Assembly (NCBI GenBank): GCA_964358895.1
Contig: CAYHPR010000003.1
Location: 14,473 to 78,472 of the forward strand
Direction of reading: 5' to 3'
Source of the DNA: Candidatus Micrarchaeota archaeon
GTDB taxonomy: Archaea > Micrarchaeota > Micrarchaeia > CABMEP01
DNA: 64,000 nucleotides
A program made the position numbers and the translations under genes. Below are positions 472 to 50,509 of the stretch, in pieces (the stretch's first letter is position 1; each line of letters starts with the position of its first letter). A model generated the notes under the pieces. The model was not told where the DNA came from, searched no databases, and was given only the letters and a program-made list of their open reading frames with translations.

Positions 472-739
472 GCTGTTCTTTTATTAGTTTCTTTATTTCT
501 TGTGATTTTTCTGGATTCAGCGACACCTGTGTACCATAATGTGTTGGTTTTCTAAGAATAAATCTCTCTTTTATTAGTTTTTCAGCTAAGTCTTTAGCTA
601 GAGCTAGCCCATGTTTTCCTAATGATTGTGACTTGAATACTTTGAAAATATTTTCATACGCTGTATGACTTCCGCCCCATTTGCGTTTTCTAGCAAGTGA
701 AAATAAAAGTTGTGAACGGAGTCGGTCTTCATTATCCAT
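455..739 (-). CDS. hypothetical basic 94-aa protein
   Basis: Sits between Rpp30 and Pop5 on the same strand. No recognisable motif. The ORF is clean and lysine-rich. Confidence 0.35.
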   Translation of the reverse strand: MDNEDRLRSQLLFSLARKRKWGGSHTAYENIFKVFKSQSLGKHGLALAKDLAEKLIKERFILRKPTHYGTQVSLNPEKSQEIKKLIKEQLGFDI

Positions 740-789
740 TTGTTTACATCGATGTAAATATTTATATAGCTATAGGTTGTAAAGTAATA

Positions 790-1119
790 ATGGAAAAATC
801 ACCATTGTTGGAAGTTATAGGATATTCTGTAGAGAACAGAGTCATAGATTTTCTTATAGAAGGAAAGGGGACAGATTACACCAAAAAGGATATAGCAGAA
901 GGTTGCGATATAGCAAGACCTACGCTTTATAAAATACTTCCAAAATTAATAACAGAGGGAATAGTCAAACACACCAGAACTATAGGTAGAGCAATTTTGT
1001 ATAGTCTGGATGAAGAAAATGAAAAAGTGCAATTATTATTACAGTTAGAAACAATGCTACTTAAGAAGTCATTCGAAGAAGTAGAAAAATCAAAAGTTAA
1101 GGCACATGTTAGACATTAG
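790..1119 (+). CDS. winged-helix transcriptional regulator, opposite strand to the flanking genes
   Basis: About 110 aa from the ATG at 790 (MEKSPLLEV...). The pattern resembles small archaeal wHTH regulators (DIAEGCDIARPTLYKILPKLITEGIVKH...GRAILYSL). The upstream extension to 697 given by the ORF track overlaps the minus-strand gene and is probably spurious. Confidence 0.5.
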   Translation: MEKSPLLEVIGYSVENRVIDFLIEGKGTDYTKKDIAEGCDIARPTLYKILPKLITEGIVKHTRTIGRAILYSLDEENEKVQLLLQLETMLLKKSFEEVEKSKVKAHVRH

Positions 1120-2152: not shown

Positions 2153-3385
2153 CTAAAATTCTACGTGTTTACCAGTTCCAACTGTTTCATCAGTCGATTC
2201 TTTCTTTTCTTCGCTTATCCTTCTTTCAATTATTTCTCTCTTTTCAACTTTTTTTTCTTTTTCCTTTGGTTTTTTTTCTTCTTTCTGCCTTTTTTCACCG
2301 CTTATTTCATAAGATTGTTTTCGTTTTCCAATTTGTGTTTCGTAGAACTCATTGACTAGCCTGCTTGCTTCAGCAGCAATTTGGCTAGACCTATCTTTTT
2401 CTTCTTGCTCACTAAGCCATTTATTAAATTTAGTCACATATCTGTTCAAAATATCGTTTAACTTACTTTTTTCTCCGTAGTCTACAATGTCCTGAGGTTT
2501 CTTAGTCTTCTTTTTCTTGACCCATTCGTCCATAAACTCTTTTTTGAGTTGTTCGACTGTTTTTTCTTTTGGTCTTTGTGAGTCTATAAATGCAAGATAT
2601 TCCTCAATTGTTTTGTTTCCGCTCACTTTTCCTATAACTGCTTGAAATAAATTTTTTGCGTATCCCTCTGCGTCATTTCGCCATTTATCTTCGTCAGTTT
2701 GTGGCTCTATCTTTATCTCCTTTACATTTATTGTACGTACTTCATCCAATTTCTGATCAGTCAAGAATGCAAGGCAACTCGCTTGGCGGTTCATTTCAGT
2801 TATTGCATTTTCATATTCTGTCAATTCTTTAGGTTTCGGATAAGTGTTTTGATCACATTCTCTAAGTTTCCATCCGTTCGGCCCCCAATCCTCTTTATCC
2901 CATCTAGCTTCTTGTTTCCATTTCGAGTTAGCTAATGTAGTTCCTTTAGTATACTCTTCAATAACTGGTTTCATTCCAAGTTTTTCTATTATCCTACTTA
3001 TCGCCCCATATTCTGATTCTGTGAGAATAAGCATCAATTTTGCATCTTTATTTTCATCGATAAGAAGCTTGTTTAGTTCTCGGTATTGATTGACATCTAT
3101 CGATCTATCCTTTTGTTGATAGTCTATTTGTTTTAAACATACTTTTGTTTTATCAATCAGTGTCATTGTTTCTTTGTAATCGTGATTAAGTTCTTTGTTT
3201 TTTTTCTGAGCTTTTTTTTCAACTTCGTAATATACTGCCATTACTTTTTCTTTCGTTTCTGCAGGTAGGCTTTCTGTCATTTTGTTAACGATTGCGTTCC
3301 GTAGTTCCTGGCGTTTTCTGAAGGCTTCTTTTTCTGTATCTATTTTCGGTGTTAGTAGTCTCGACACTCCCATTTTATCGCTCAT
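2153..3385 (-). CDS. hypothetical highly charged K/E-rich protein (410 aa)
   Basis: Long clean ORF lying just upstream of L15e on the same strand. Low-complexity KEKEKK tail. No recognisable catalytic motif. Confidence 0.5.
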   Translation of the reverse strand: MSDKMGVSRLLTPKIDTEKEAFRKRQELRNAIVNKMTESLPAETKEKVMAVYYEVEKKAQKKNKELNHDYKETMTLIDKTKVCLKQIDYQQKDRSIDVNQYRELNKLLIDENKDAKLMLILTESEYGAISRIIEKLGMKPVIEEYTKGTTLANSKWKQEARWDKEDWGPNGWKLRECDQNTYPKPKELTEYENAITEMNRQASCLAFLTDQKLDEVRTINVKEIKIEPQTDEDKWRNDAEGYAKNLFQAVIGKVSGNKTIEEYLAFIDSQRPKEKTVEQLKKEFMDEWVKKKKTKKPQDIVDYGEKSKLNDILNRYVTKFNKWLSEQEEKDRSSQIAAEASRLVNEFYETQIGKRKQSYEISGEKRQKEEKKPKEKEKKVEKREIIERRISEEKKESTDETVGTGKHVEF

Positions 3386-3524
3386 ACATCAATATCCAGT
3401 TTTCATTTATAAATTAATGTGTTTTACAACTTATTCGGGAAAATTTCAATCCCAAAGGTATTTATATGAGAAACGCATAACGTATTTAGTTAAGGACGAG
3501 GCGTGTGGGCGCCAGAGGGATTAT

Positions 3525-4994
3525 ATGGTTTCGATATTTGGAAGAAAGAAAAATACTAATCAAACAGATGATTCGGATAAGGATCAAGTCCGTTCAATCG
3601 TTACGCGACTGAGTGAGCGAATAAATAGTTCTAAGACAGATCTTGCAGCAATACAGCCCCTTATCTCAAATAAAGTGGCTGAAAAAGAAGATCTTCTAAG
3701 ACAACAGGCAGAAGCTAGACTTAAGCAAGAAGGCATTGAATACGATATAGTTTATACTGTAAGAACGGTTAATGCAGAAGTAGATCAAAATAAAAAAGAT
3801 CAAACATTAGTGGAAGAGTTGGGAGCACGTAAAGCGCTTCTAGAAGTAAAATGCAAGGCTCTGCAAACTAATCTTGATGAAGAAGCAGCATATTTCGCTG
3901 ATTTGCAAAAAAAGCACGAAGCAAACGTGAAAGAACTTTCTGGTAAACTTAAAAAAGCAGAAGCAGCTCTTTCTGACATTAATTCAAAGGAAACAAAAGA
4001 GCTTGTCGATGCAATTGAGAGACGTTCAAAAGAAGTGAATGAGGCACGTGATCAATTGAAGTTGCTTAAAGTACTTGATGATAAATCTGAAAAGAAAGAA
4101 CAGGCACCTCTCTTTTCAGATTCAACAAAGAGAAAAATACGTAAATCTATTGTAGGCGTAGCCGTTGTAGCTGCTGTATTTGGTCTCTATAAATTAGTCG
4201 AATGGGGTACTAATAAGAAGCTAGAAAGCATAAGAAACGCTGCGAGAGAGGAGTTATTAATTGAAAATGCTAAACAACGGAAAGAAGAACGAAGAAAACT
4301 TGCTGAGCAGACGGCGAAAGAGGAACAAGAAAAGCAGGCAAGCTTAAGTGAAAAAGAGCGAAATATGTTGAAGTATAATGCTAGAATGCCATTACTTATA
4401 GAGGAGCTTAATAAGATTGCATCAGATAAGAAAAATTCAAGGAACAAATTAGCTAAAAGAATAATACAATTAATCAATGAAACAAGCCAAGATGAGTATA
4501 GAACCTTGGTTTTGTTCATAGGTCACGCAGAAAGAGACCTATACAAGCAGGGCTGGAATGGAGATTATAATCAAGACAATTCTCTTAACGATCTAAAAAA
4601 GTATATTCTTAAAGAAAGAGAAGTCGCACAGGAACGTGCTAAGCCAAAAAAGATAACCGAGACAAAAGAGGCGCCTAAACAAGAGTACACGGATGCCCAA
4701 ATACAAAATTCTAAAGAGGTTATGGCTCGTTTATTGGTCGATGTCGTAGAATTAAAAGGGCAAGTGCCAGTCATTAGAACTGCTGACAATGCCAATGAAG
4801 TACTGAAGATTTTGACCAATATCTATCAGGGATCCCTACAGTCAGATGGTGTCGAGTTCATTCCAAACGTAGAAGTTAGAAAAGACGAGAACTCAGAAAC
4901 AACTAATATCAAAAATTATCTTGGTAAGCGCAAGGTTGTTCGTATCAGAGTTGTGGGCGACAGCAAGCTTGAAGCACAGATAGTTAAAAGATAG
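3525..4994 (+). CDS. coiled-coil protein with one central TM helix and a conserved C-terminal module (paralog A)
   Basis: The ATG at 3525 avoids overlap with the upstream minus-strand gene. Heptad-rich, charged sequence. Central hydrophobic helix SIVGVAVVAAVFGLYKLV. The C-terminal 90 aa are about 50% identical to the C-terminus of the next gene (KEVM..KG..DNA..VL..LT..YQGS..GV.F.P....VR.RVVGDSKLEA). Confidence 0.6.
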   Translation: MVSIFGRKKNTNQTDDSDKDQVRSIVTRLSERINSSKTDLAAIQPLISNKVAEKEDLLRQQAEARLKQEGIEYDIVYTVRTVNAEVDQNKKDQTLVEELGARKALLEVKCKALQTNLDEEAAYFADLQKKHEANVKELSGKLKKAEAALSDINSKETKELVDAIERRSKEVNEARDQLKLLKVLDDKSEKKEQAPLFSDSTKRKIRKSIVGVAVVAAVFGLYKLVEWGTNKKLESIRNAAREELLIENAKQRKEERRKLAEQTAKEEQEKQASLSEKERNMLKYNARMPLLIEELNKIASDKKNSRNKLAKRIIQLINETSQDEYRTLVLFIGHAERDLYKQGWNGDYNQDNSLNDLKKYILKEREVAQERAKPKKITETKEAPKQEYTDAQIQNSKEVMARLLVDVVELKGQVPVIRTADNANEVLKILTNIYQGSLQSDGVEFIPNVEVRKDENSETTNIKNYLGKRKVVRIRVVGDSKLEAQIVKR

Positions 4995-5079
4995 TAGTTA
5001 AATCAATTTTACTATCTTTTATTTTCATGCCTTCCCGTAAACATTTAAAAGGGAGGAGTGATCTAATACTCGTGAGGTC

Positions 5080-6756
5080 ATGGGTGATCGTACGCCAGTG
5101 CAAGCACAAAAAAAAGTTGAACCAAAAGTTAGCGATGTGCATAAAGTTGATGCGTCACTAGACCTTCTGTCGCTTTGGGTTGAACAAGGAAGAGGACAAA
5201 AAGGAAAGTTGGAACCTAATCGAGTTGTCAGTGCGTTGCTAATCTCAGATGATTTAAAGAAAGGTAATCAGTCCGACAGTGGCTTTAGAAGCGAAAAAGA
5301 TGCAGAAAAAATATTCTCTACCCTAAAAAATGTCGTCGGGATAACAGAAAAAGGAACAGTGTTCGAATTTAAAACCCGAGACGATATTATGTATCGTACA
5401 CGTTTATTTTTAAATGGTGAAAAAAGTTTTGTTCAGATTACACCTCTGCTTTCTCCACCGTTGGATCTTGCAGATCTCGAAGTTCGTATGAACGGCAAGG
5501 GATCTACCTATGAAGATGCAGCATTCGCAGTCCGCTTTTTGGCCGAAGGTAAAGGAGCAAGTACAATTCTTGTTTTTGACAGCCGAGAAACAGCCGAGAA
5601 ATTTGCTGAACGTTTTTCTACTATTGCAGGCGTTACTAATTTCGAACAGAATAAAATAATCAAGGTCACTCCTCAAATGGGACGGCCGGTAAGTGTTAGG
5701 CAGGGTGGTAATAAAGTTATGTTTGCAGGAGATATCCGACTTATTTACAAAGAAATTTGGAACGAACTAAAAACGCAGTTTGGCCGTGATGAAAGCGATT
5801 TCAAGAGTAAACCATTCGATATTCAGTTAACTGTCAGAAATAAGAACGCATTGGATGTCGCATTAGATGCAATTATTTTGGCCGGTTTCATGTCTACCAA
5901 CCAGAAAGTAGAATACTTGAGAGACGTTAATGACAAACTTACTAATATTTCAGCTGTAATAAGGACGGATCCGAAGGAGTATAAGAACCTTCTTAATAAA
6001 ATGCTAAATCAGCAAAAAATTTGGATTAATACATTTGATAAGGCAGACAGGTCAACCAAAGAAAGAATTATTTTTGAACTTGAAGATGAGTGGCGTAAAG
6101 CAGCTCAAGAACTAATAATCGAAGGGCCAGCCCATTATCTATACAAAGATTTACGAACACTGCGAGGGAAGGACCTTAGGGAGCTAAGGAATACTTTCGC
6201 TCTTAAATTAGGGATGAAAAAATTAGAATCTCCTCCGCAACCCGAACCTTCAGTTAAGAAATCGACAGCCAAAACTGATGAACGGGAAGTCGAAAAATTC
6301 GTAGACATCAAAGGTAAAAATGAGGAGAAAATTTTGGAGCTGCAAAAGTCTGGAAAGGATGTTCCAGTCCTAGAAGTTTCAGAAAAAGAAGCAGATAAAA
6401 TATTACAAGGGCTTATGACATTTAGAAAAACAGAAGAAAAGAAGGGCGTAAAAGAAAAAGTAGAAGAAAAGGCAGAAAAACTAAAGTATTCCTCTGAGCA
6501 GGTTGAGTCAGCTAAAGAAGTCATGAGTCAATTAAAGAAAGATCTTGTGGATATGAAAGGTATTTCGGTTACAAGAAAAGTGGATAATGCATCTGTCGTT
6601 TTAAGTGTTTTGACGGATCTTTACCAAGGATCAGTTAAGCAAGAAGGAGTCACATTCACCCCCTCAGATCTGCAGAAATTTCTAAAGAAAAAAGTTATGC
6701 GTGTCAGAGTCGTTGGCGACAGTAAGCTTGAAGCAGAAGTCATGAAAGCAGATTAA
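5080..6756 (+). CDS. soluble coiled-coil protein with the same C-terminal module (paralog B)
   Basis: A GGGAGGAG ribosome-binding site sits 8-10 nt upstream of the ATG. 558 aa with no TM helix. The C-terminal 90 aa are conserved with paralog A (MRVRVVGDSKLEAEVMK). Confidence 0.65.
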   Translation: MGDRTPVQAQKKVEPKVSDVHKVDASLDLLSLWVEQGRGQKGKLEPNRVVSALLISDDLKKGNQSDSGFRSEKDAEKIFSTLKNVVGITEKGTVFEFKTRDDIMYRTRLFLNGEKSFVQITPLLSPPLDLADLEVRMNGKGSTYEDAAFAVRFLAEGKGASTILVFDSRETAEKFAERFSTIAGVTNFEQNKIIKVTPQMGRPVSVRQGGNKVMFAGDIRLIYKEIWNELKTQFGRDESDFKSKPFDIQLTVRNKNALDVALDAIILAGFMSTNQKVEYLRDVNDKLTNISAVIRTDPKEYKNLLNKMLNQQKIWINTFDKADRSTKERIIFELEDEWRKAAQELIIEGPAHYLYKDLRTLRGKDLRELRNTFALKLGMKKLESPPQPEPSVKKSTAKTDEREVEKFVDIKGKNEEKILELQKSGKDVPVLEVSEKEADKILQGLMTFRKTEEKKGVKEKVEEKAEKLKYSSEQVESAKEVMSQLKKDLVDMKGISVTRKVDNASVVLSVLTDLYQGSVKQEGVTFTPSDLQKFLKKKVMRVRVVGDSKLEAEVMKAD

Positions 6757-6855
6757 TGGCTCGTTCCGTTTATCCTATCTTCTAATTATCCGTTAGCCGT
6801 CGTCTATTGCATTGTATATTGAAAGACTTAAATAGGTAAAACGCACTAAATATTC

Positions 6856-9800
6856 ATGTACACAACGAGTTTCAGGTCTATTAAAGCAATTAAGAAGTTT
6901 ATACTGCATCCTGTACGTAAGTTCATCACTTATCCACTAGTTTCTACTTTTCTTATGTATAATACTGTTCTTGGAACAGATCTGTCCCAGGAGAATGACA
7001 AATATTTAAAAAGAACAATTGATGCTACTATTATGGGAAGTGAAAAGGATATGGGTGGAGTCGTTGCGCAGAAAAAAGAAGAGGTAAAACCAATTACTTC
7101 AGCTCCTACTGTTGTCGGTATTATTGAAAAAGAGATCTATTCTTATCATCAAGCGAATGAAGAAATAAATGGTTTCAAAAGACAAGGATTAGAAACGTTA
7201 AATCAGTTCGATTCCTTATTTAACAGATCAAAAAAGTTTAACAAAGAAAAATCTTCTCAATTTATCGATGCAGACGGTAAGCCACAGTTAAGAAAAGCAT
7301 TAGATTGGTTAAACAAGAATATTGCAAAATTTGAAGATGCTCCAAGAACTGATGCTTATTTTTTACAGCGTTCTCTTGAAATTTTGGGTAAGTTTGAGGC
7401 ATCGGAAGAAAAAGTATTGGATTTACTTAAAAAAGTAGACAAAAGTTTTCAAGAAATCGGAATGGTTGAAGAGGTTCGTACAGCCATAATTGAGCATTAT
7501 CTGCCCATTTTTTATCAGGCTGGAAATATAATTGCAAGTCAAGCAGACAAACGTTCCTATGATGTAGCCGAAGGTAATGCCGATAATTTAACTAAATCCA
7601 TAGATAGGTGGCACACATTCATAAGCAAGTCAGAGTTTACCAAAGAGGATGTTGAAAGTTTCGTTAATGAACAGGATAACTTAGAAAAAGAAAATAAGAA
7701 AAATCATAACCTAGAAATTGATTTGACTAATCCTAAAAATGATATCTCAGGCTTCACGGATTATTCTAAATTCAAGAGAGTACCATTCGACCCAGGCCTT
7801 AATTACATTGGCAAATACTATTCAGCTTTGTTCTCGATACAATTTGAGAAACCAGAAAAACTGAGGAATATTAACTGGTACTATTTAAGTCAGACAGATT
7901 TTGGGTACGCAACCAACGTTACATTCCAATTAATGGATCAAGTTTACCAAGAAGGACTTCAAAGTGTAACTATTGTTAAAAAAGCACTCGAAGATTCGGT
8001 AGGTAAAAAAGTCAAAAAAGAAGAATTCAGATCAAATGCATTCTTACCTGAACGATTTGGCACGATAAGCGATTATTACAAAACTCAGCACAGAGATCTC
8101 AAAAATTTTGTAGGGCAGAGTTTTGATGAGTGGGTCGACATGTATAATCCGCCATATCCTCTTTTAGTCAAACTTAGACTTAGATTAGGAGAGCTTTATA
8201 CAAAAAGCATTTATCATGCAGTTAGAAATGAGAAATCAGAATTCGACCGTAACAAGAAAAGTTCAGAGCAGTTAGTCGCTGTTTTTGAAGAGACACTAAA
8301 ATCTTCTAAAAAATATACTATTGAACAACTTAAGAAATTGAACGGCGTTATGTTGACAGCTAGATCCGCTTCAGGATCTGAGCTTAGAGACATATTGCAC
8401 GATCAGTACGGTCTTGGAAATTTTTACGATTGGTTGGTCTTAAACAAAATCGATGTTGCCAAACTTCTTCTAACTATTCCTATAATTGAACCAGGTAGCA
8501 AAGAAGAGGTTTATCTGCGACACCCTCTTTATGGAAAACTCATGGACGTTTTTGTTACTTCCGTTTTTTATCCTCTTTCGAAAGAGCAAAAACCAAATAT
8601 GCCTTACTTATCAAAGGAAGGCGAACGTTATCCTCTTTTTGGTAATGTTCCTTTTCGTGAATTCATAGTTGGATCTGATAAAAAGATTACTGAAAAGACA
8701 AAGGTATCTGAAGTTGACAAAATAATTGAAGAGAAAAATAAAACATTAATTCCACTGCCGCGTGATATAATCCTAAATGCGAGACAAAGTAAAGAAGATA
8801 TTTCATTCTCACCTGGAGACTCATCAGTTAATACAAAGGTTGCGATCCAACCATACACTTTCGATCTAGTTTCGCACAAATATTCTAAAACAGACAAGGT
8901 TCATGATGAAGAAGCAATCTCCTTTACACCTGGAGTAAGAACAACAATCTTCGGAGTTCCAGTCAATCTGACTATGTCAGACGAGTGGGGTGCAGATATC
9001 CCTGCGTATCTATTGAGAAATCCATTCGAAAAAGACTTTAGGAATCAGAGATGGGATGCATCCTATGAACAGGTTAAATTCACAAAAGATGATCAAACAA
9101 TCGAAATAACTTATTCAGACATAAGTAGTTTCGATCAATTCGTTCTCCAAAATAAAGGATGGAATAAAGAAGGAAATATATATTCCAAAGGGAAGTACAA
9201 GTTGACAATAGGTGAAAATGATTTCGTTTTGAGCGATACAAAGCAAGAAGTTTCCATTAAGATTCCAAAAGATTTTTCAGAGTATGCTAGACCAGAAGAT
9301 AAGGATAAAAAAAGAATTCGATACGGGACAGAGGGTGTTAAAGTAGACATGCCTAGATACTATGCAACTTTCAAATCAAACAAAGCACCCGTATCTGCTG
9401 AGATACCGTTGACATCTGCCCACGGAGATGTGCGTTTCATTAAGAGCTGGTTTTGGTTAAACAGATCTATTGTATCTGTGCCAGGAGACGGACTGAAGGC
9501 AGGACAGGACTTCCATGTTAAATCAATAGTTTCAAGAGAACCAACTCAAAGAACATTTTCTTTAGGTGTTAGAACTGGAGGATATTCAGCATATCAGACA
9601 AAAAGTGAGATTGAAACTAACTTACCTCCTTCTCTTTCAATTCAACCTCCAGTTTCTGTTTCTAGGACGATCAATCAGCAGCTTTCTTTTGTCAATACTG
9701 CATTTATTCCAAATCCGATAGTCTTGAAGAATTTGGGGATTAAAGCAGGAGATATTTTATCAGCTGCAGATTCATTGAAGAATTATGTAGATGTAATGCA

Positions 9801-10926
9801 ACAGAATGCTACAAATATTAATCACGGAAATGCAGAGCTTGAAGCATATCAGTTATCAGTTCACGAATTATTCACAAAACTTTATCCAAAAGCAAAGGTG
9901 TCTGGTGAAATTAAGAACGTACTTGATCAGTATGCAAGAGATGGGCTTCTCACTGACAAAGTGGTTAACGCGCTCAAAGATGCAAATCTGATCGCAATAC
10001 CAAACGGATCAACAACAGAAAGGACGGTTAAGCAGGACGTAAGTTTCAATATTCAATCATTCCTGCTTCGATTTACAAAAGTTAAAGGAGTTGTATTAGG
10101 TGCAGGTGGAGGATTCGGTGATGTTAAATTTGACTATGAAATAACTGCACCAGTTCCAAGAATGAAACAAGAGTATTCTTCACTATTGAAGAGAGACGTG
10201 TTCCTGCCAGAAACAGACAACGAAGGAAGGCCAATACTGGACAAAAAGACATTCAATTTTTCAACTTCTGAAAAGATTAAAGGGCCAATAATCCAGATTG
10301 AGGGCAAACGTACAGCTGCTAGAATGGAATGGTTATTTTCGGAATCTGTTGATGTAAAGAATCTTATCAAGTCCGGTCCAGCTGTTGCAGATGTTCCGAT
10401 CGATCTTTTCAAAAAGAAATACAACAGTATTCTCGATCTTGCACAATTGATAACTCTCCCGTTGGTTCCAACAATTAATTCAGTCAAAGTAACTGGCCAG
10501 CTCGGAGAAATGAGTTCATTAAGACTTGCTTGGGATGTTGCACACGTTCCTATGTCCGAACTTCCATTCTACGGACAAAAAATAGGCGAACAGGTATTGG
10601 ATCGATTCCCAAACTGGCTTAGAAGAATGATTCCAGAAGTTAAGGAGATTCCTTTTGGTGCAACAATCGGATTTGTTGCTGAGAAACAAAAGGCAGGAAG
10701 TATTGAGGTTGATTTTGAAAAATATGCGAATGCAAAGATCCAGTTTGGTCCAGAAGCTATCCGATTCTGGTGGATGACGACAGTCGGAAGAAAGGATCAA
10801 GAGATTAGGCAATATGGAATGTCTGTCGACCTTCAGCAAGCATTCCAAAAGAAATGGCTTCCACTCAGAGCATTTGCGTCTAAGGGACAAGACAATACGC
10901 ATATTGGTGTTGAACTAACTTGGTAA
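6856..10926 (+). CDS. giant orphan protein (about 1300 aa), no signal peptide, no P-loop
   Basis: Uninterrupted 4-kb ORF co-directional with and tightly spaced after paralogs A and B. No TM segment, no Walker A motif and no recognisable enzymatic motif. Ends in IGVELTW. The true start may be an internal Met, since the first 60 aa are odd. Confidence 0.6.
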   Translation: MYTTSFRSIKAIKKFILHPVRKFITYPLVSTFLMYNTVLGTDLSQENDKYLKRTIDATIMGSEKDMGGVVAQKKEEVKPITSAPTVVGIIEKEIYSYHQANEEINGFKRQGLETLNQFDSLFNRSKKFNKEKSSQFIDADGKPQLRKALDWLNKNIAKFEDAPRTDAYFLQRSLEILGKFEASEEKVLDLLKKVDKSFQEIGMVEEVRTAIIEHYLPIFYQAGNIIASQADKRSYDVAEGNADNLTKSIDRWHTFISKSEFTKEDVESFVNEQDNLEKENKKNHNLEIDLTNPKNDISGFTDYSKFKRVPFDPGLNYIGKYYSALFSIQFEKPEKLRNINWYYLSQTDFGYATNVTFQLMDQVYQEGLQSVTIVKKALEDSVGKKVKKEEFRSNAFLPERFGTISDYYKTQHRDLKNFVGQSFDEWVDMYNPPYPLLVKLRLRLGELYTKSIYHAVRNEKSEFDRNKKSSEQLVAVFEETLKSSKKYTIEQLKKLNGVMLTARSASGSELRDILHDQYGLGNFYDWLVLNKIDVAKLLLTIPIIEPGSKEEVYLRHPLYGKLMDVFVTSVFYPLSKEQKPNMPYLSKEGERYPLFGNVPFREFIVGSDKKITEKTKVSEVDKIIEEKNKTLIPLPRDIILNARQSKEDISFSPGDSSVNTKVAIQPYTFDLVSHKYSKTDKVHDEEAISFTPGVRTTIFGVPVNLTMSDEWGADIPAYLLRNPFEKDFRNQRWDASYEQVKFTKDDQTIEITYSDISSFDQFVLQNKGWNKEGNIYSKGKYKLTIGENDFVLSDTKQEVSIKIPKDFSEYARPEDKDKKRIRYGTEGVKVDMPRYYATFKSNKAPVSAEIPLTSAHGDVRFIKSWFWLNRSIVSVPGDGLKAGQDFHVKSIVSREPTQRTFSLGVRTGGYSAYQTKSEIETNLPPSLSIQPPVSVSRTINQQLSFVNTAFIPNPIVLKNLGIKAGDILSAADSLKNYVDVMQQNATNINHGNAELEAYQLSVHELFTKLYPKAKVSGEIKNVLDQYARDGLLTDKVVNALKDANLIAIPNGSTTERTVKQDVSFNIQSFLLRFTKVKGVVLGAGGGFGDVKFDYEITAPVPRMKQEYSSLLKRDVFLPETDNEGRPILDKKTFNFSTSEKIKGPIIQIEGKRTAARMEWLFSESVDVKNLIKSGPAVADVPIDLFKKKYNSILDLAQLITLPLVPTINSVKVTGQLGEMSSLRLAWDVAHVPMSELPFYGQKIGEQVLDRFPNWLRRMIPEVKEIPFGATIGFVAEKQKAGSIEVDFEKYANAKIQFGPEAIRFWWMTTVGRKDQEIRQYGMSVDLQQAFQKKWLPLRAFASKGQDNTHIGVELTW

Positions 10927-10982
10927 CCTGCGAAGAGCAGACATTAAAAAGATAAGTTACTTGATCTATAGATCCTGATTGT

Positions 10983-12755
10983 ATGTCGAAAAGTATCAAA
11001 GCTATAACGTGTATAAACACGAGATTATCCCAACGTTTTTCCTATCTATCAGTCTTCATTCTATTTCTAACATTTTTTTCGTTTTCAGGAACAGTTTCTG
11101 CACAATCCCGTACTCAAGTATACGTCGCACATTACGGCGATGTAGAGTATTACGGTATTTCACTTGGAAACAACTTCGCAGTTTCGCAAAATGCTAGTGT
11201 CGGAGGAACTGCAGTTACAAATGGATCAAATGTTTGTACAGGTTCTTCGTTGGACGTCACAGTGCTTAATGCCTCTACAACCACTGAACTGTCAAATTCA
11301 AAAGTATCCTGTGCTCTTGACTGTACAAGTCCTGATACCACTTCCGCTTTGACAGCGTTTCCTCTTCCGATATTATGGCAAAGTTCCGGTACATATTCAT
11401 CTAATGTTAATAGTTACTCTCCTCCGAATGCAGGGGATAGCTTTTGTAAGGGTCCGTTCGATACGCCACAGCCTCCAAATCCATTGGCACCCAACACAGA
11501 AAATGTGAATTACGATATAATAGGGATCGATAAAGGAACTGCACGTGCTAATTTAGGACTTTTCTGTTACGGAAGTACACAGACTTCACTTGATGGCTCT
11601 TCAGTTAGTTCACCAGTTGGTCTTAACACTAATGGATCAAAAACCTTGTTAAGTTCTATGATTGTCAACGAATGCTCCATGTTAGTTCGATCTTATGAGA
11701 ATCCAGGGTTCCAAGGCAAACCCTGGACTGCTGATTGTTTATATTCACCAGTTGGAGGATTTTTTCCTTTAACTACAGCGTCTACAACCACATTCAACGT
11801 TGTCAGAGGAGTTAATCTCACCGGCCCTTTTGGCAGTTACACTGCAAATCCAAGCAGCACAATGATCATCACTTTGCCAGTTACAAATACAGGCGATTTA
11901 GGTGCATCCGTTACAGGTATTTCACTTTCAGCAGGGTTCACAGTCAATAGTATTGTACCCGCACTTCCTGTAACCGTGGCTGCTGGTACTTCTACATCCT
12001 TCACAATTAATGCATCAACGCCCGCAGTAGCAGGAAATTACACTCCAAATGCCACAGTAACCTTCACTCCAACACCAGCAGCGATTGGTGCGTGTGGTGT
12101 GGCAGGTTCAACTGCAAGCGTATCGATCGGCAACATAGTAGTTGCGCCGGGTGTTGTGCCAGGCGGTGGCCCGAGTGGCGGTGGCCCTGGTTGCGTATCA
12201 GGTATCACTACTCCGCTCAGCATAACGATGCGAGCAACTCCAGCCTCTCTCCTTAATACACTACTTCTTTCTTCTCCACCAAATGTCAACAATGTTACAC
12301 TTGTTGCAGAAATAAGCAGGCCAAACAGCGGTTGCATCGGAAACGACATAAAAGCAAATATAACGGTTTACAGTTACAACGCATCCGGTCAACGCAATAT
12401 AGTGAGGTATAAATCTACAGATTTTTCATGCATTGATGCAGGCGTGTCTAGGAAGAATGCGAAAACATGTTATCCAGCATCCTCAGTTGATGGCAGCAAC
12501 TGTATTTATTCAATGTCACCGTCAAATAGTCCTGGTGTCAGTTCAGCATTTAATTTCACAGTCATACAGCCATTCCTTTATTCAGCAACACAATCTTCAG
12601 TTTGTCCGGCAGATCAATACGGAATATTCAACTCTCCTTTTTCCGATTCTATCTATGAGGCTGAGATTAGCATATCTGATCCAATCGCCTCTTCCACTCA
12701 GACACGTTCAACTTTCTTCGGAATCTACGGATTAACATGCCAAGAAAGAGCATAA
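10983..12755 (+). CDS. secreted Cys-rich, sequon-rich surface glycoprotein candidate
   Basis: N-terminal signal peptide (FSYLSVFILFLTFFSFSGTVSAQS). More than 25 N-x-S/T sequons, S/T/G/N/P-rich, and a GGGPSGGGPG linker. Locally GC-rich, about 60% in the 12.1-12.2 kb stretch. Confidence 0.6.
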   Translation: MSKSIKAITCINTRLSQRFSYLSVFILFLTFFSFSGTVSAQSRTQVYVAHYGDVEYYGISLGNNFAVSQNASVGGTAVTNGSNVCTGSSLDVTVLNASTTTELSNSKVSCALDCTSPDTTSALTAFPLPILWQSSGTYSSNVNSYSPPNAGDSFCKGPFDTPQPPNPLAPNTENVNYDIIGIDKGTARANLGLFCYGSTQTSLDGSSVSSPVGLNTNGSKTLLSSMIVNECSMLVRSYENPGFQGKPWTADCLYSPVGGFFPLTTASTTTFNVVRGVNLTGPFGSYTANPSSTMIITLPVTNTGDLGASVTGISLSAGFTVNSIVPALPVTVAAGTSTSFTINASTPAVAGNYTPNATVTFTPTPAAIGACGVAGSTASVSIGNIVVAPGVVPGGGPSGGGPGCVSGITTPLSITMRATPASLLNTLLLSSPPNVNNVTLVAEISRPNSGCIGNDIKANITVYSYNASGQRNIVRYKSTDFSCIDAGVSRKNAKTCYPASSVDGSNCIYSMSPSNSPGVSSAFNFTVIQPFLYSATQSSVCPADQYGIFNSPFSDSIYEAEISISDPIASSTQTRSTFFGIYGLTCQERA

Positions 12756-12848
12756 TCTACTACTTTTATGCGGTGTGAAACCACCGCTCTATTTTAACTA
12801 GAAATAAGTGCAAAACTTGTAAGCAGCACAATCATTAGATCAGATCAA

Positions 12849-13142
12849 GTGGGAACAGATATACTTATAAATAAGTGGGATGATATTATTAATATGACAA
12901 GTGGGGCCGAATATATTTTATTGCCGGTTGACAAAAAAGGCAGGATACATCTTCCAAAAAAGCTACGTGAAGACTTAGGCATTAGTGAGCACGTTGTTGC
13001 TGAAAAAGAATCAGATATGTTAATTCTTAAACCTACAAAGAAGATTTCAGATCCTCTAACATTTCTTACATCTTTTCAGATAAAAACAAAAAAGACTCCT
13101 GTCGAAATGAAGCGAGAGGCTGAGGAAGGATTTGGGAGATAA
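12849..13142 (+). CDS. AbrB/SpoVT/MazE-family antitoxin (VapB-like)
   Basis: Swapped-hairpin motif ILLPVDKKGRIHLPKKLREDLGISEH. Overlaps the downstream PIN gene by 11 nt. Confidence 0.55.
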   Translation: MGTDILINKWDDIINMTSGAEYILLPVDKKGRIHLPKKLREDLGISEHVVAEKESDMLILKPTKKISDPLTFLTSFQIKTKKTPVEMKREAEEGFGR

Positions 13143-13536
13143 GATGCGTTACTATCTTGATGCCGACATATTACTTGCTTTACTAAAGCAAAATGACCAT
13201 TTAAAGCAAAAAGCTAACAGATGGATTGCAGACAATAAAGACAAAAATGAACTAATAACTTCATCATTATCCTGTTTAGAAGTGTTATTCTATCTCTATA
13301 AAAACGGTCTGTCCGAAAATGCATTGGACATCATAAGGGCCATATCCATATTGTGCAAGGTTACTTATTTCAATTTTCAACATATAGAACAATCCATCAT
13401 TCTTTCTGAACATCACTCTCTTAGTCCAGCAGATTCTATACATGCAGTTCTGGCTATGAACTATGATGCAATTATTAGTAGTGATAAGTCATTTGATAAA
13501 GTTCATAATCTAACTCGGATCGATTTCACAGCTTAA
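13132..13536 (+). CDS. vapC: PIN-domain nuclease (VapC-like toxin)
   Basis: N-terminal YLDADILL with an acidic residue, a later SSLSCLEV, and a C-terminal DAIISSDKSFD. Acidic-residue spacing is typical of PIN domains. Translationally coupled to the upstream AbrB-like gene. Confidence 0.6.
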   Translation: MGDKMRYYLDADILLALLKQNDHLKQKANRWIADNKDKNELITSSLSCLEVLFYLYKNGLSENALDIIRAISILCKVTYFNFQHIEQSIILSEHHSLSPADSIHAVLAMNYDAIISSDKSFDKVHNLTRIDFTA

Positions 13537-13579: not shown

Positions 13580-14308
13580 ATGTTTGAAACATTCGGACAC
13601 TCATTGCAGGTTTATTTCAAGTACCTAACTATGATTCTTTTCTTTTCCATTCCTTTCGTTATTGCTCTCTTGCTTCCATATCTGTCGCCAGCACCAGTTT
13701 TCAGCGCGCTAGGAGGATACTTCTTAAGATCTGGAAGCCTTCCAGAGCTCCAATTAGCTGACTCTTTGATTATTATCGTTATTTCCCTTCTCTCCCTAGC
13801 CTTCCTTTCACTAGCACTCGTGGCAATCAATCTAGTAGTCAAGTCCAGCAGAACAAGAACAAAAGTAAGCGCAGAAGCCTTGAAAAGTTTAGGTAAATAC
13901 ACGGCAGTTGTACTTGCTATTTTTGTGGCTGTTAAGGTCGTTGAGACGCTGATCCTTCTTTATGTAATAGGTTCAGGTGTTTCAGAATTGCCAGTTTTCA
14001 TTTTCTCTTTCCTTTCCACATTAGGCCTTTTCTATGTGGCACCGGCAGTCGTTCTTGAGGAAAAGAAGCCGGCGCCTGCCTTTATCGCAAGTTACAAAAA
14101 TATCCTTATCAAGCCACTTCATTTCATCCTCTGGCTAGTAGTCGCATTCCTTCTGGTATATGTTGTTTCTTCAATCTCATTTGCACTTTTCACAGAAACA
14201 GCCCTTAGGCAAGGATTCATTGTTTTAGTCAATTCCTTATTCGTCCTGCCATTTCTAGTAATCCTTCAGGCACAGATGTATATCGCGAAGTATACGCTGA
14301 TAAAATAA
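13580..14308 (+). CDS. hypothetical polytopic membrane protein
   Basis: Six or more hydrophobic helices. No recognisable motif. Confidence 0.4.
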   Translation: MFETFGHSLQVYFKYLTMILFFSIPFVIALLLPYLSPAPVFSALGGYFLRSGSLPELQLADSLIIIVISLLSLAFLSLALVAINLVVKSSRTRTKVSAEALKSLGKYTAVVLAIFVAVKVVETLILLYVIGSGVSELPVFIFSFLSTLGLFYVAPAVVLEEKKPAPAFIASYKNILIKPLHFILWLVVAFLLVYVVSSISFALFTETALRQGFIVLVNSLFVLPFLVILQAQMYIAKYTLIK

Positions 14309-21614: not shown

Positions 21615-22859
21615 ATGAACATATTAAGGATAATGCTTAACGCCCCTCCTTTTAAAGGTGGTGCAGAAAATAGAATACACGAAATTAGCAAAGTTCTTGC
21701 TAAAAAACATAAAATAACTGTATTAACTGGGGGTATTCCGGAAGGAAAAGAAAAAGTAGTAGACGGTATCAGATATATTTATTTTGGGGATATGAATATT
21801 TTTACAGGTTTTAAAAACGATTCTCTATCTGAAATGATAAAATGGTTAATCGATGTAAGTAGATACATCTTTTTTAAAAATATTAATATAAAACGATTTG
21901 AAGGTACTTATCTAAGGGCTATGGCAGATTGGTTAAACAAAAATGGAAAAGATTACGACATTATAATAAATGAATTTACGCCTGGGGCAATACGGCCAAT
22001 TTCCAATTACCCTTATAGTCTTAATGTAATACACTTAAGATATTCTTTATTTGATACATTCGAAAAGTCAACTAAATTTGGATGGAAATTTAATTGGTTA
22101 GAAGTCCCGTATTATTATCTATTTCAGCAATTTCTTTTTTTAACAAATAAAAATTTTATAGTTTGTAAGACTGATGATGCAAATGCAATACACTTTCTAA
22201 ATAAAAATGCAAAAATTAAAGTTATTCATCCTGCGGCTGATCCCAGCTTAAGGAAAGCAAAGACCGAAGAAAAAAATTTTATCTTATATATGGGTAGAAT
22301 AGATAAATACCAAAAAGGATTAGATCTACTTTTAGAAGCATTTGCTGAATTAAACTGCAAAGAAAAACTTGTTGTTGCAGGAGATGGTTATGATTTACTA
22401 GAACTTAAAGAAAAAGTTAAAGACTTAGATATAAAAAACAGAGTAAAGTTTGTTGGTTGGGTTGCTGGGAACAGTAAGAGGAAACTATTAACTAAATGTA
22501 AATTTGTTGTTATGCCTTCTAGAATAGAAGGATTAAGCCTCACATCTTTGGAGGCAGCTTATTGTGGAAAAGCAATTTTAGGCACTAATGCAGTTGCACA
22601 TGGCCTTCCAAACGTGTATTTAATTGAGTTGAATAAACAGGATATCTATCGGGGTTTAATTACTCTACTTAATAACTCCAAATTAAGGAAGAAATTAGGA
22701 AATAAAGGTAGAAAAGCAGCGAATAAATTTTCGTGGGAGAGTTCAGCAGGATTAGAAGAAGATTCATATAATCAAATTTTTAATAATAACAAATTAAAGA
22801 GCGAGATAACTGGTTTCGATGAAAATCTTAAGAATATTTTTAAACGCCCCTCCTTTTAA
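21615..22859 (+). CDS. GT4 glycosyltransferase, tandem copy 1 with junction-encoded C-terminus
   Basis: EX7E-type motif SRIEGLSLTSLEAAYCGKAILG. The body is identical to the downstream copy. The last 31 aa are encoded by the duplication junction and overlap the start of copy 2. Confidence 0.65.
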   Translation: MNILRIMLNAPPFKGGAENRIHEISKVLAKKHKITVLTGGIPEGKEKVVDGIRYIYFGDMNIFTGFKNDSLSEMIKWLIDVSRYIFFKNINIKRFEGTYLRAMADWLNKNGKDYDIIINEFTPGAIRPISNYPYSLNVIHLRYSLFDTFEKSTKFGWKFNWLEVPYYYLFQQFLFLTNKNFIVCKTDDANAIHFLNKNAKIKVIHPAADPSLRKAKTEEKNFILYMGRIDKYQKGLDLLLEAFAELNCKEKLVVAGDGYDLLELKEKVKDLDIKNRVKFVGWVAGNSKRKLLTKCKFVVMPSRIEGLSLTSLEAAYCGKAILGTNAVAHGLPNVYLIELNKQDIYRGLITLLNNSKLRKKLGNKGRKAANKFSWESSAGLEEDSYNQIFNNNKLKSEITGFDENLKNIFKRPSF

Positions 22860-23963
22860 AGGTGGTGCAGAAAATAGAATACACGAAATTAGCAAAGTTC
22901 TTGCTAAAAAACATAAAATAACTGTATTAACTGGGGGTATTCCGGAAGGAAAAGAAAAAGTAGTAGACGGTATCAGATATATTTATTTTGGGGATATGAA
23001 TATTTTTACAGGTTTTAAAAACGATTCTCTATCTGAAATGATAAAATGGTTAATCGATGTAAGTAGATACATCTTTTTTAAAAATATTAATATAAAACGA
23101 TTTGAAGGTACTTATCTAAGGGCTATGGCAGATTGGTTAAACAAAAATGGAAAAGATTACGACATTATAATAAATGAATTTACGCCTGGGGCAATACGGC
23201 CAATTTCCAATTACCCTTATAGTCTTAATGTAATACACTTAAGATATTCTTTATTTGATACATTCGAAAAGTCAACTAAATTTGGATGGAAATTTAATTG
23301 GTTAGAAGTCCCGTATTATTATCTATTTCAGCAATTTCTTTTTTTAACAAATAAAAATTTTATAGTTTGTAAGACTGATGATGCAAATGCAATACACTTT
23401 CTAAATAAAAATGCAAAAATTAAAGTTATTCATCCTGCGGCTGATCCCAGCTTAAGGAAAGCAAAGACCGAAGAAAAAAATTTTATCTTATATATGGGTA
23501 GAATAGATAAATACCAAAAAGGATTAGATCTACTTTTAGAAGCATTTGCTGAATTAAACTGCAAAGAAAAACTTGTTGTTGCAGGAGATGGTTATGATTT
23601 ACTAGAACTTAAAGAAAAAGTTAAAGACTTAGATATAAAAAACAGAGTAAAGTTTGTTGGTTGGGTTGCTGGGAACAGTAAGAGGAAACTATTAACTAAA
23701 TGTAAATTTGTTGTTATGCCTTCTAGAATAGAAGGATTAAGCCTCACATCTTTGGAGGCAGCTTATTGTGGAAAAGCAATTTTAGGCACTAATGCAGTTG
23801 CACATGGCCTTCCAAACGTGTATTTAATTGAGTTGAATAAACAGGATATCTATCGGGGTTTAATTACTCTACTTAATAACTCCAAATTAAGGAAGAAATT
23901 AGGAAATAAAGGTAGAAAAGCAGCGAATAAATTTTCGTGGGAGAGTTCAGCAGGATTAGAAGA
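21639..23963 (+). repeat. tandem direct duplication of two 1121-bp units (period 1204 bp, 83-bp junction) of a GT4 gene
   Basis: Every position I compared matches between the copies: 21657 with 22861, 21721 with 22925, 22621 with 23825 and 22751 with 23955. Divergence occurs only in the first 25 nt (MNILRIM against MKILRIF) and after ggattagaaga. Confidence 0.8.
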
Positions 23964-23991
23964 GGTCTATTATGCCGCATTACGCAAATGA
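22819..23991 (+). CDS. GT4 glycosyltransferase, tandem copy 2 with native C-terminus
   Basis: Same protein as 21615-22859 over about 373 aa. Ends EVYYAALRK. Confidence 0.7.
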   Translation: MKILRIFLNAPPFKGGAENRIHEISKVLAKKHKITVLTGGIPEGKEKVVDGIRYIYFGDMNIFTGFKNDSLSEMIKWLIDVSRYIFFKNINIKRFEGTYLRAMADWLNKNGKDYDIIINEFTPGAIRPISNYPYSLNVIHLRYSLFDTFEKSTKFGWKFNWLEVPYYYLFQQFLFLTNKNFIVCKTDDANAIHFLNKNAKIKVIHPAADPSLRKAKTEEKNFILYMGRIDKYQKGLDLLLEAFAELNCKEKLVVAGDGYDLLELKEKVKDLDIKNRVKFVGWVAGNSKRKLLTKCKFVVMPSRIEGLSLTSLEAAYCGKAILGTNAVAHGLPNVYLIELNKQDIYRGLITLLNNSKLRKKLGNKGRKAANKFSWESSAGLEEVYYAALRK

Positions 23992-36393: not shown

Positions 36394-38442
36394 ATGTTTA
36401 TGAAAGTTCCTAGGCTCCCTTATCCATTCATAGTAATATCTATTCTAGAATTATTCACACTGTTTGCTTATATAATCCCTTTTGTAGAAAAAAATAACCT
36501 TTACATCTGGGACATGGTCGGTCATTATTATTTGGCAGATTATTACAAAACAACTCTTTGGCCTCGTTTTGTAGGTTGGAACCCGCATTTTTTTGGAGGC
36601 TTTCCGCAAGGACAGTTCTATCCTCCATTATTCCATTGGTTAGTCGGAGGGATTGGTCAATTGACGGGTACATTCTGGGCATTTAAGCTGCTGACAGTTA
36701 TCGGGTTGCTTCTACCACCGTTCGCATTTCTTTATTTTGTTAGAAAACTCGGATTCAACGACAAAGAATCGGCACTTGCTGTGCTTTTCATGTTTCTTCC
36801 AATGATTTACGGATTTCATGGTGGCGGGTTCGAATCCACATTTAACATAGGTTTAGTAACTCAAGGTTTTTCTATTTCAATTTTATTTTTTTATTTAGGT
36901 GCTTTTATAAGTTCGTTAAGAAATAAGCGTTTCATATCATCAAGTATCTTTTTCGTATTGTTAGCACTCTCTCATTTTTACAGTACTTTTGCTGGAATCG
37001 TAGCAGCATTTGTAATTCTGTCGACCTTTTCTTTTACACAAACGCAGTTTGCTAAAGACTATTTTATTACGAGTTTTAAACATGCCTGCTTATCTTTAGC
37101 CCTTTTGAGTTTTTGGTTAATTCCGTTCATAGTTAATCTTCCATTCATTTCATCTTCTTATATCTCTGGTGAATTGCAGCCAATCTCCTCTGTAACGTTT
37201 TTTCTTTTATTGATCTCAATAATTGTCATAGCCAAAAATCAAGATAACCGGGCGTTTCTTGCGTTAGTCATTGCATTAGTCTTTCTTTTGTTATACGTTT
37301 TAGAATCAGTATTGACTAAATATCTGCCAATACAGTTGTATAGATTTTCTCTTTATCCGAGTATTTTTATTTCCGTTCCAGTGGGTATCTTGGCAGTTTA
37401 TCTAACGGGCAAAACGATTTCAAAATATTTTGGTCCATTTATAGAAAAAATAAAAATTTCAATAAATGAAGAAAAAATTTATCCATACCTGTCTGTTTTT
37501 TTTGTAGGCTTAACATTGTTTTTACTCTTTTCCGTACGTATATTTAATGTAGCAAATCCAGTCGGAACATTTGACATGAAACTCAATCTTCCTCTCGAGT
37601 TCGATTTTAGTTCAGGAAGAGTTCTAACAAATCCAATACAAAGCGATACAGGAGGACTTAATCCGATGTATCATATCGCTTCGCATCAAGTTGCATGGAA
37701 CGGAGCTGAGGAAGTCGGGGGACTTTTTGTTGAATCGACTCCGAATGCGGGTTACATTCAGCATATTAAACGTGAAATTGATCCAAGAGCGGCTAGCTGG
37801 GGCATCCCTACCTCATATATAACTGAAAATAAAGATGTTCTTTTGCCTTATCATGCAAAATATCTCGGAATCAGCTATATTTTGACAAATATAGACCCTA
37901 CATACTTCGAATCAATTTTTGGTAGATTATATTACTGGTATATAGATACGAATTCCGTATTCGGCATCTATAGATTAATTCATATCGCAGATAACAATGT
38001 GTTCGAAGTTCTTGATTATCAACCTGTCAAAGTTAATGGAGATTGGAGAGATGAGCAATTTGGTTGGTTCTTCGATGATCAAAGAATATCGAAGTTGATA
38101 ACTCCAGACGATGTCCCTTCAGTTGTAGGATCAAAAAATGTCACCGTTACGGTTTTGAGAAAAGAACCAGAACGAATAGAGTTGTTCATTAATTCTATGT
38201 CTCTTGTCCCAATTCATATTAAGATTCCCTATTATTCAAATTGGAATGCATACGTAAACGGCGTTAAGACGCAGATATATAAAGTTCCAGTAAATATGAT
38301 GCTTGTTTATGGAAGCGGAGTGGTTGAATTACGTTATGAACCAACTGCTTCAGATTATCTAGGTATGTTTATTAGTGCAATAGCAATTAGTTATTTGGCC
38401 TACGGTGTTATATTTGAAAAGAAAAATAAAAAAATTAAATAA
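36394..38442 (+). CDS. large polytopic membrane protein (GT-C/YfhO-like), 682 aa
   Basis: About 12 TM helices followed by a roughly 250-aa soluble C-terminal domain. No STT3 WWDYG motif. Confidence 0.4.
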   Translation: MFMKVPRLPYPFIVISILELFTLFAYIIPFVEKNNLYIWDMVGHYYLADYYKTTLWPRFVGWNPHFFGGFPQGQFYPPLFHWLVGGIGQLTGTFWAFKLLTVIGLLLPPFAFLYFVRKLGFNDKESALAVLFMFLPMIYGFHGGGFESTFNIGLVTQGFSISILFFYLGAFISSLRNKRFISSSIFFVLLALSHFYSTFAGIVAAFVILSTFSFTQTQFAKDYFITSFKHACLSLALLSFWLIPFIVNLPFISSSYISGELQPISSVTFFLLLISIIVIAKNQDNRAFLALVIALVFLLLYVLESVLTKYLPIQLYRFSLYPSIFISVPVGILAVYLTGKTISKYFGPFIEKIKISINEEKIYPYLSVFFVGLTLFLLFSVRIFNVANPVGTFDMKLNLPLEFDFSSGRVLTNPIQSDTGGLNPMYHIASHQVAWNGAEEVGGLFVESTPNAGYIQHIKREIDPRAASWGIPTSYITENKDVLLPYHAKYLGISYILTNIDPTYFESIFGRLYYWYIDTNSVFGIYRLIHIADNNVFEVLDYQPVKVNGDWRDEQFGWFFDDQRISKLITPDDVPSVVGSKNVTVTVLRKEPERIELFINSMSLVPIHIKIPYYSNWNAYVNGVKTQIYKVPVNMMLVYGSGVVELRYEPTASDYLGMFISAIAISYLAYGVIFEKKNKKIK

Positions 38443-49699: not shown

Positions 49700-49742
49700 T
49701 TAATTAGCTTTTGTTGAAATAAATAATAAAAAGAAGGAGATA

Positions 49743-49762
49743 CTAAGAACCTTGGTTCTTAG
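49743..49762 (+). promoter_or_regulatory. perfect palindrome CTAAGAACC-TT-GGTTCTTAG immediately 5' of the SBDS ribosome-binding site
   Basis: Nine-bp perfect arms, followed by GGGTGAG and 5 nt later the ATG at 49773. The same core recurs at 53604. Confidence 0.5.
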
Positions 49763-49772
49763 GGTGAGTTGA

Positions 49773-50468: not shown

Positions 50469-50509
50469 AAATAAGAAAAAAAATAATGATTTTACGGAGA
50501 TGAGTTTAT

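Follow-up and report, generated by a model that had tools for sequence, protein, structure and literature searches.

A 64,000-nt stretch of contig CAYHPR010000003.1 from a Candidatus Micrarchaeota archaeon, referred to below as the window, contains four co-directional open reading frames (ORFs), termed here p1 to p4, whose products were compared with known protein families, with each other and with the genes at corresponding loci of related archaea (Table 1). As reported in a preliminary description of this DNA, the four genes are separated by 85, 99 and 56 nt and lie between the conserved ribosomal protein L15e block and a VapBC pair. The left flank comprises the genes for RNase P proteins Pop5 and Rpp30 and for L15e (112-2117), and the right flank those for an AbrB/MazE-type antitoxin and a PIN toxin (12849-13536). 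One additional ORF overlooked in that description, pU, may form one orphan block with p1-p4.

The four plus-strand ORFs are certainly genuine coding genes. The GC content of the whole window is 34.7%, at which ~7% of random codons are stops, and an open frame of 1356 codons would arise by chance with a probability of ~1e-44, which argues against chance ORFs. In the block genes the GC content at first codon positions exceeds that at third codon positions (GC3), the same as in the neighbouring genes. The GC3 of the block (0.30-0.32) matches that of the L15e gene and of the genes at 40-64 kb, and thus the block is not a recent import.

The p1-p3 proteins have a common composition, being basic, lysine-rich and depleted in cysteine. 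Together they contain a single Cys in 2403 residues, whereas Cys makes up 0.70% of the window's remaining proteins, and the probability of finding none in 1356 residues is 8e-5 at the window background. Depletion of Cys is frequent in exported proteins that lack disulfides. The absence of a recognised enzymatic motif, noted in the preliminary description, was confirmed by a motif scan, in which p1-p4 proved to lack P-loop, HExxH and CxxC motifs. Internal repeats in each protein were not above the level of shuffled sequences, and no tRNA genes, Rfam families or att-like flanking direct repeats were found around the block.

Table 1. Features of the orphan gene block and its boundaries; the last three rows refer to positions in locus L001, the L15e locus of uncultured archaeon LFW-242_1 (TM, transmembrane; SD, Shine-Dalgarno; K/E, lysine/glutamate; pI, isoelectric point)
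Feature	Position	Strand	Description
pU	2153-3385	-	410 aa, K/E-rich, pI 8.7, orphan; in the L15e-p1 interval, oriented divergently to p1
Divergent intergenic region	3386-3524		TATA-like TTTATAAA 28 nt before pU start; TATA-like ATTTATAT 64 nt before p1 ATG
p1	3525-4994	+	489 aa; alternative ATG at 3417 (one gene caller) gives 525 aa
TM-like segment of p1	4146-4202	+	residues 208-226, SIVGVAVVAAVFGLYKLVE; Kyte-Doolittle 19-residue window 1.85
Shared C-terminal domain, p1 copy	4686-4991	+	residues ~388-489, ..YQGS..RVVGDSKLEA..; DNA repeat D1
Hairpin and T-run after p1	4986-5025	+	AAAAGATAGTA..TACTATCTTTT; possible terminator, predicted from sequence
Upstream signals of p2	5044-5063	+	TATA-like TTTAAAA 36 nt before ATG; SD-like GGGAGGAGTGATC 16 nt from ATG
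p2	5080-6756	+	558 aa
Shared C-terminal domain, p2 copy	6487-6747	+	residues ~470-556
p3	6856-10926	+	1356 aa, 155 kDa
Moderately hydrophobic stretch of p3 N-terminus	6922-6981	+	residues 23-42, below TM threshold; by-eye reading of translation
p4	10983-12755	+	590 aa
GC-rich hairpin and T-run after p4	12770-12797	+	terminator-like cluster end
Giant ORF, L001	6128-9988	-	1286 aa (~1225 from internal Met), directly beside L15e, opposite strand
Orphan ORF, L001	2997-4427	+	476 aa, Cys-poor, without export signal
Orphan ORF, L001	4420-5964	+	514 aa, Cys-poor, without export signal

Domain organization of the block proteins

The p1 and p2 proteins end in a common domain of ~100 aa that is 44% identical between them (BLASTP E 4e-22, 86 bits; hhalign probability 98%) and follows the pattern ..AKEVM..DNA..VL..L..YQGS..GV.F.P..RVVGDSKLEA... 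The nucleotide identities of the two copies at the first, second and third codon positions (0.61/0.78/0.42) indicate selection on this domain at the protein level. Outside the domain nothing aligns by either BLASTP or hhalign, and heptad-like residues are in excess over shuffled sequences in p1 (129 vs 32+-27; segments 13-44, 115-183 and 292-319) but not in p2. The two proteins are therefore not full-length coiled-coil paralogs, as had been proposed. The coiled-coil-rich character and the single TM helix hold for p1, whereas the suggested architecture of a membrane-anchored and a soluble paralog reduces to one shared C-terminal domain. From its N-terminus p1 is composed of a heptad-rich helical part, one TM-like helix, a K/E-rich helix and the shared domain; the threshold applied to TM segments was a mean Kyte-Doolittle hydropathy of 1.6. 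The p2 protein, which is Cys-free and has neither a TM helix nor a signal peptide, reads as a soluble protein of mixed alpha/beta type. A Wzz-like polysaccharide co-polymerase was considered for the pair and rejected, as such proteins require two TM segments on either side of a coiled-coil domain, whereas p1 has one TM segment and p2 none, and there was no Wzz match in Pfam.

The p3 protein is basic (pI 8.75), contains no Cys and terminates in ..HIGVELTW. The preliminary description assigned it neither a P-loop, nor a TM helix, nor a signal peptide. The first two statements are correct, since no helix rises above the TM threshold, but the third is uncertain: in residues 1-42, read by eye, a long basic n-region is followed by a moderately hydrophobic stretch, with a potential cleavage site between VLG and TD, and a weak signal peptide or anchor is possible at this N-terminus. 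According to a coarse helix map from the AlphaFold2 output, with which a Chou-Fasman window profile agrees, p3 is helical at residues ~160-540 and largely non-helical thereafter, with a helical patch at ~945-1040. The last ~90 residues look by eye like an amphipathic beta-meander with a terminal G-x-x-L-x-W. Apart from this coarse map, the AlphaFold2 model of p3 residues 157-1356, built without an alignment, was unusable (predicted local distance difference test (pLDDT) score 31). The same applies to the model of p2 built with the p1 domain as the alignment (pLDDT 35), for which a Foldseek search gave no PDB match at E<=0.001; the Wzz entries in its output had E values of 0.8-5 and are meaningless on a model of this quality.

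The p4 protein starts with a classic signal peptide (residues 1-40, nt 10983-11102; cleavage between ..FSGTVSA and QS) and contains 16 Cys, 25.6% Ser+Thr, 8.6% charged residues and a Gly/Pro linker, with a pI of 5.3. It is all-beta by Chou-Fasman propensity and has no C-terminal anchor. The signal peptide and the many cysteines were correctly recognised earlier, but the >25 N-glycosylation sequons attributed to this protein were not recovered: 12 N-X-S/T sequons are present, a number expected from composition (shuffled p4 sequences give 10.3+-2.7). The locally high GC that had been assigned to p4 likewise reflects its amino acid content. The overall value of 0.43 is raised by the Ser/Thr/Gly/Ala/Pro codons at positions 1 and 2, but the GC3 of 0.31 is the same as in p1-p3 and the core genes, which rules out foreign GC.

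Host lineage and distribution of the block

The best matches of the L15e protein are found in uncultured archaeon LFW-242_1 (81%) and then in Micrarchaeota metagenome-assembled genomes (50-60%), and the 80 best L15e loci include no Thermoplasmata. Judged by these sequence matches, the host is a DPANN archaeon related to Micrarchaeota; the source sample is the 0.2-um fraction from Hainich groundwater well H52. The cultivated Micrarchaeon possesses an S-layer whose protein has homologues encoded in other genomes of Micrarchaeota (bioRxiv 10.1101/2021.04.28.441871), so that the premise of a wall-less cell fails and the Thermoplasmata or wall-less host supposed in the preliminary description is ruled out.

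The block fits no known family in the narrow sense that every membership tested fails. Scans of p1-p4 and pU against Pfam, NCBIfam, PHROGs and PADLOC yielded chance-level matches only. An anti-phage defence system was rejected, as the sole PADLOC match was a chance-level hit to Cmr1 in p2 (E 0.037, 11 bits). Sequence searches of the PDB with p1, p2, p3, p4 and a profile of the shared domain returned nothing below E 0.29. In this respect the earlier view of the proteins as uncharacterised is upheld by the family, defence, phage and PDB sequence searches alike.

A word-indexed search of 5.8 billion proteins gave no match for p3, and p2 and p4 matched only themselves. The p2 query missed p1, which is present in this collection with its 86-bit domain, and because of this failed positive control the negatives for p2 and p4 are weak; K/E-rich queries seem to swamp the candidate lists of the search, weakening their negatives. 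Among the block proteins, the full-sensitivity protein search covered p3: phmmer with residues 157-1356 against 1.84 billion representatives retrieved only a 50-aa fragment of p3 itself. No relative of p3 was detected in GTDB genomes, JGI metagenomes, IMG/VR, GenBank phages or PLSDB plasmids. The shared-domain profile had no match in JGI metagenomes or IMG/VR contigs, p1, p2, p4 and pU had none in IMG/VR, and p2 and p4 had none in GenBank phages.

Synteny anchored at L15e was analysed in 80 loci with 10-kb flanks, in which tblastn, phmmer and a hidden Markov model of the shared domain found no relatives of pU or p1-p4. Other Micrarchaeota carry different genes beside L15e, and an analogous giant ORF is present only in locus L001. 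The pU protein was seen in the same Hainich sample only. Two ENA contigs carrying p4 and pU (L081 and L082) come from that sample and show 100% identity except for a 10-N gap. They derive from the same assembly data and thus provide no independent second sighting, and an apparent frameshift of p3 in this second contig set is ruled out, being the 10-N scaffold gap.

Transcription signals

TATA-like motifs are strongly enriched at positions -40 to -21 before the start codons of the window, with 31 occurrences in two bins vs 3.4 expected per bin, which suggests that the mRNAs are mostly leaderless. Such a box precedes p2, p3 and p4 at -36, -28 and -39, respectively, and p1 at -64. The strong ribosome-binding site described before the second gene corresponds to an SD-like motif that is indeed present, but 16 nt from the ATG (Table 1). 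Altogether, p1-p4 represent a tight gene neighbourhood with no demonstrated operon.

Comparison with LFW-242_1 and known systems

The nearest relative by L15e, LFW-242_1, carries a comparable set of genes at the same position beside L15e. Its giant protein, when started from the internal Met, has a textbook signal peptide (..RPRSVLSVCLASALLAEGLILPGGRLAYA, cleaved before ED), a pI of 9.1, few Cys and the C-terminus ..LLGGYKF. It is thus similar to p3 in being basic and Cys-poor, in having a signal peptide (weak in p3), a helical N-half, a non-helical or beta C-half and an aromatic C-terminal residue, and the accompanying pair of ~500-aa Cys-poor orphans parallels p1 and p2. The two loci differ in gene order and strands, as well as in GC content (57% in LFW-242_1 vs 35% here), and no p4-like gene was seen in LFW-242_1, where the contig ends at L15e. 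We treat this possible analogy as a lead and not as evidence of homology.

The S-layer proteins typically combine a signal peptide, a pI of 4-6, few sulfur amino acids and membrane anchoring (bioRxiv 10.1101/2021.04.28.441871). Each of the two candidates in the block has a part of these traits: p4 has the signal peptide and a pI of 5.3, but also 16 Cys and no anchor, whereas p3 has no Cys, but its pI lies outside this range, its N-terminal signal is weak and it has no anchor. No S-layer domain profile from Pfam or NCBIfam matched p3 or p4 even at E<=1. SLP_Mh, the PF05123-type protein of Ca. Micrarchaeum harzensis, belongs to the same phylum-level group as the host of the block; it is large and Cys-poor, has an N-terminal signal or anchor, and is glycosylated, as p4 could be. 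Elsewhere in the window, beyond the surface-glycan island, the plus-strand gene at 41851-45627 encodes a 1258-aa orphan without a Pfam match that has an N-terminal signal anchor, repeated immunoglobulin-like modules (IDxxxPxTT..), several Cys pairs, and a C-terminal TM helix followed by a basic tail. As a candidate for the S-layer this protein is preferable to both p3 and p4, and among the proteins of the window it is the likeliest S-layer or surface protein.

Among the large proteins of DPANN symbionts, the SPEARE proteins of Nanohaloarchaeota have 3,300-8,500 aa and a TM anchor, contain recognisable domains of the serine-protease, laminin-G adhesion and type III restriction types, and have been proposed to act in host contact (PMC6642349). 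They are similar to p3 in being very large and lineage-restricted, in contrast to p3 they are membrane-anchored (no p3 helix exceeds the TM threshold), and their domains are absent from p1-p4 by Pfam.

The C-terminus of p3 also invites comparison with bacterial outer-membrane beta-barrels and autotransporters. These proteins end in an aromatic-terminated beta-signal, and many autotransporters are Cys-free; p3 ends in G-V-E-L-T-W and is likewise Cys-free. However, the host is archaeal, p3 matched no outer-membrane protein family in Pfam or NCBIfam, AlphaFold2 did not yield a usable barrel model (pLDDT 31), and the cultivated Micrarchaeon has one membrane and an S-layer (bioRxiv 10.1101/2021.04.28.441871).

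Functional interpretation of the locus

We tentatively interpret the locus, with somewhat less than even confidence, as a lineage-restricted and fast-evolving gene block for cell-envelope or host-contact proteins rather than enzymes. This interpretation is based on the glycosylation island next to the block, on the signal peptide of p4 and the TM helix of p1, and on the contrast in Cys content between p1-p3 and p4. The island is a low-GC region of ~25 kb (14339-39916; GC 0.27-0.31, GC3 ~0.21 vs 0.30 in the core) with surface-glycan genes, including four PMT-like GT-C transferases, four GT4 and two GT2 glycosyltransferases, and GH10 xylanase-like and GH15-like proteins. In the preliminary description the block was viewed as an envelope-associated structure or an export/assembly system. 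The former part is reasonable for p4 and p1 in this neighbourhood; the latter is not borne out, as neither an ATPase nor a polytopic membrane protein is present among the block proteins and none of them has a secretin-like match.

In the proposed model, p4 would be exported by Sec, for which its sequence contains the signal peptide, and would acquire disulfide bonds and glycans on its many Ser/Thr/Asn residues; the PMT-like GT-C transferases encoded nearby are possible enzymes for the latter. The richness of p4 in Ser and Thr beside PMT-like enzymes suggests O-glycosylation in particular. The mature protein could then serve at the cell surface, in soluble or peripheral form, possibly as an adhesin. 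The p3 protein may be a 155-kDa Cys-free structural protein, possibly exported via its weak N-terminal signal, and p1 is predicted to be a single-pass membrane protein with coiled-coil arms. The shared C-terminal domain might dock p1 and p2 onto a common partner, for which p3 is the obvious candidate.

Several observations weigh against this assignment. No homologue, fold or motif was found for the block proteins, and hence their putative localisation and function are deduced from composition and context. The signal peptide of p3 is weak and its pI is unlike that of acidic S-layer proteins, and p2 has no export signal. The separate TATA-like boxes and the hairpin after p1 mean that co-expression is not implied. 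No searched genome or metagenome beyond the same sample carries any member of the block. The lack of co-conservation, which the preliminary description had named as contrary to its proposal, is therefore only formal and does not disprove co-conservation. The L001 proteins compared with p1-p3 by BLASTP, phmmer and hhalign gave null-level scores equal to those of reversed-sequence controls. The evidence that p1-p4 constitute one system is weak.

Alternatively, p1-p4 may be adjacent but functionally unrelated orphan ORFs (ORFans) in a variable region, with an old partial duplication connecting p1 to p2 as the sole link among them. We consider this explanation possible, although not probable. DPANN genomes are rich in ORFans and commonly contain blocks of them, a separate TATA-like box precedes each gene at a genome-typical distance, the hairpin with a T-run follows p1, and there is no co-conservation to argue otherwise. 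Against it stand the co-directional and tightly spaced arrangement of the genes, the Cys-depleted, basic and K-rich composition common to p1-p3, the domain present in both p1 and p2, and the comparable set at the same locus in LFW-242_1.

Another explanation places p1-p3 inside the cell, as a membrane-tethered structural or remodelling assembly near the membrane, with p4 as an unrelated bystander. The lack of an export signal in p2, the N-terminus of p3 that stays below the TM and signal threshold, the long heptad helices on both sides of the p1 TM segment and the basic, K-rich proteins, which suit acidic membranes, are all consistent with such a scaffold. The N-terminus of p1 (MVSIFGRKK plus helices) recalls the N-termini of ESCRT-III and PspA proteins, but the profile and PDB searches do not bear this out: p1 had no Snf7 or PspA_IM30 match in Pfam at E<=1 and no PDB sequence match at E<=0.1, although the PDB holds ESCRT-III, PspA and Vipp1 and a relative should have been visible. 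On these profile and sequence grounds ESCRT-III/PspA membership of p1 was rejected. Since exported proteins more typically show such a strong depletion of Cys, and the C-half of p3 is beta-rich with a terminal aromatic residue, we regard the intracellular scaffold as unlikely.

The block could also be a remnant of an integrated virus or mobile element, in which p4 would be a spike-like glycoprotein, p1 would sit in the membrane and p3 would be a large structural component. In favour of this, five of five genes are ORFans, a VapBC pair adjoins them, a resolvase-like ORF lies nearby and the locus interrupts the usual archaeal exosome/RNase P/proteasome neighbourhood. We nevertheless consider it improbable and reject a provirus: hallmark genes (integrase, capsid, packaging ATPase), tRNA gene and flanking att-like direct repeats are absent, the GC3 is that of core genes, and there are no PHROG matches, no IMG/VR matches for p1-p4 and pU, no phage matches for p2, p3 and p4 and no plasmid match for p3.

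The envelope or host-contact interpretation can be extended to a specific scheme, which we offer as a speculative and rather improbable one, namely that the block encodes a new host-contact apparatus of a Micrarchaeota-related lineage with a hyper-diverged counterpart beside L15e in LFW-242_1. In such an apparatus the beta-rich C-half of a secreted p3, with its terminal aromatic residue, would be inserted into a membrane or surface layer or bound to it, the membrane-anchored p1 and the cytoplasmic p2 would hold p3 through their common docking domain, and p4, as a disulfide-rich O-glycosylated adhesin, would decorate p3. The DPANN archaea depend on contact with host cells, and the proteins that mediate it have been identified for almost none of their lineages. 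A block of exported and membrane proteins without relatives, located beside a surface-glycan island, is a reasonable place to seek such contact factors, and the LFW-242_1 parallel, if true, would mark a hyper-variable "contact locus" anchored at L15e. Caution is warranted, as sequence alone cannot establish such a role and the cluster could be a mere group of neighbouring ORFans.

Genomic surroundings

The neighbourhood of the RNase P, L15e, proteasome alpha and exosome RNase PH genes is split in the window into two parts (112-2117 and 48986-52841), which are ~47 kb apart and on opposite strands. The orphan block, the VapBC pair and the surface-glycan island are located between them, and this split suggests a hyper-variable locus. 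Between the RNase P genes and on the opposite strand, a small HTH_7/resolvase-like ORF (697-1119, plus strand) has weak matches to terminase small subunit and invertase helix-turn-helix domains.

A 242-aa polytopic membrane protein with ~6-7 hydrophobic helices is encoded on the plus strand between the VapBC pair and the first PMT-like gene (13580-14308); it had no Pfam, PHROG or PADLOC match, and in the protein collection it stands as an orphan singleton. Within the surface-glycan island, two overlapping plus-strand ORFs (21615-22859 and 22819-23991) have near-identical tables of Pfam GT4 matches with shared match coordinates (215-367); the cause may be duplication in tandem, a frameshift within one gene or an artefact of ORF calling. 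Further downstream, the plus-strand gene at 36394-38442 encodes a 682-aa orphan without a Pfam match. Its 90% cluster holds six ENA fragments of ~47 aa from short contigs and, unlike p1-p4, this protein may be present in additional assemblies.

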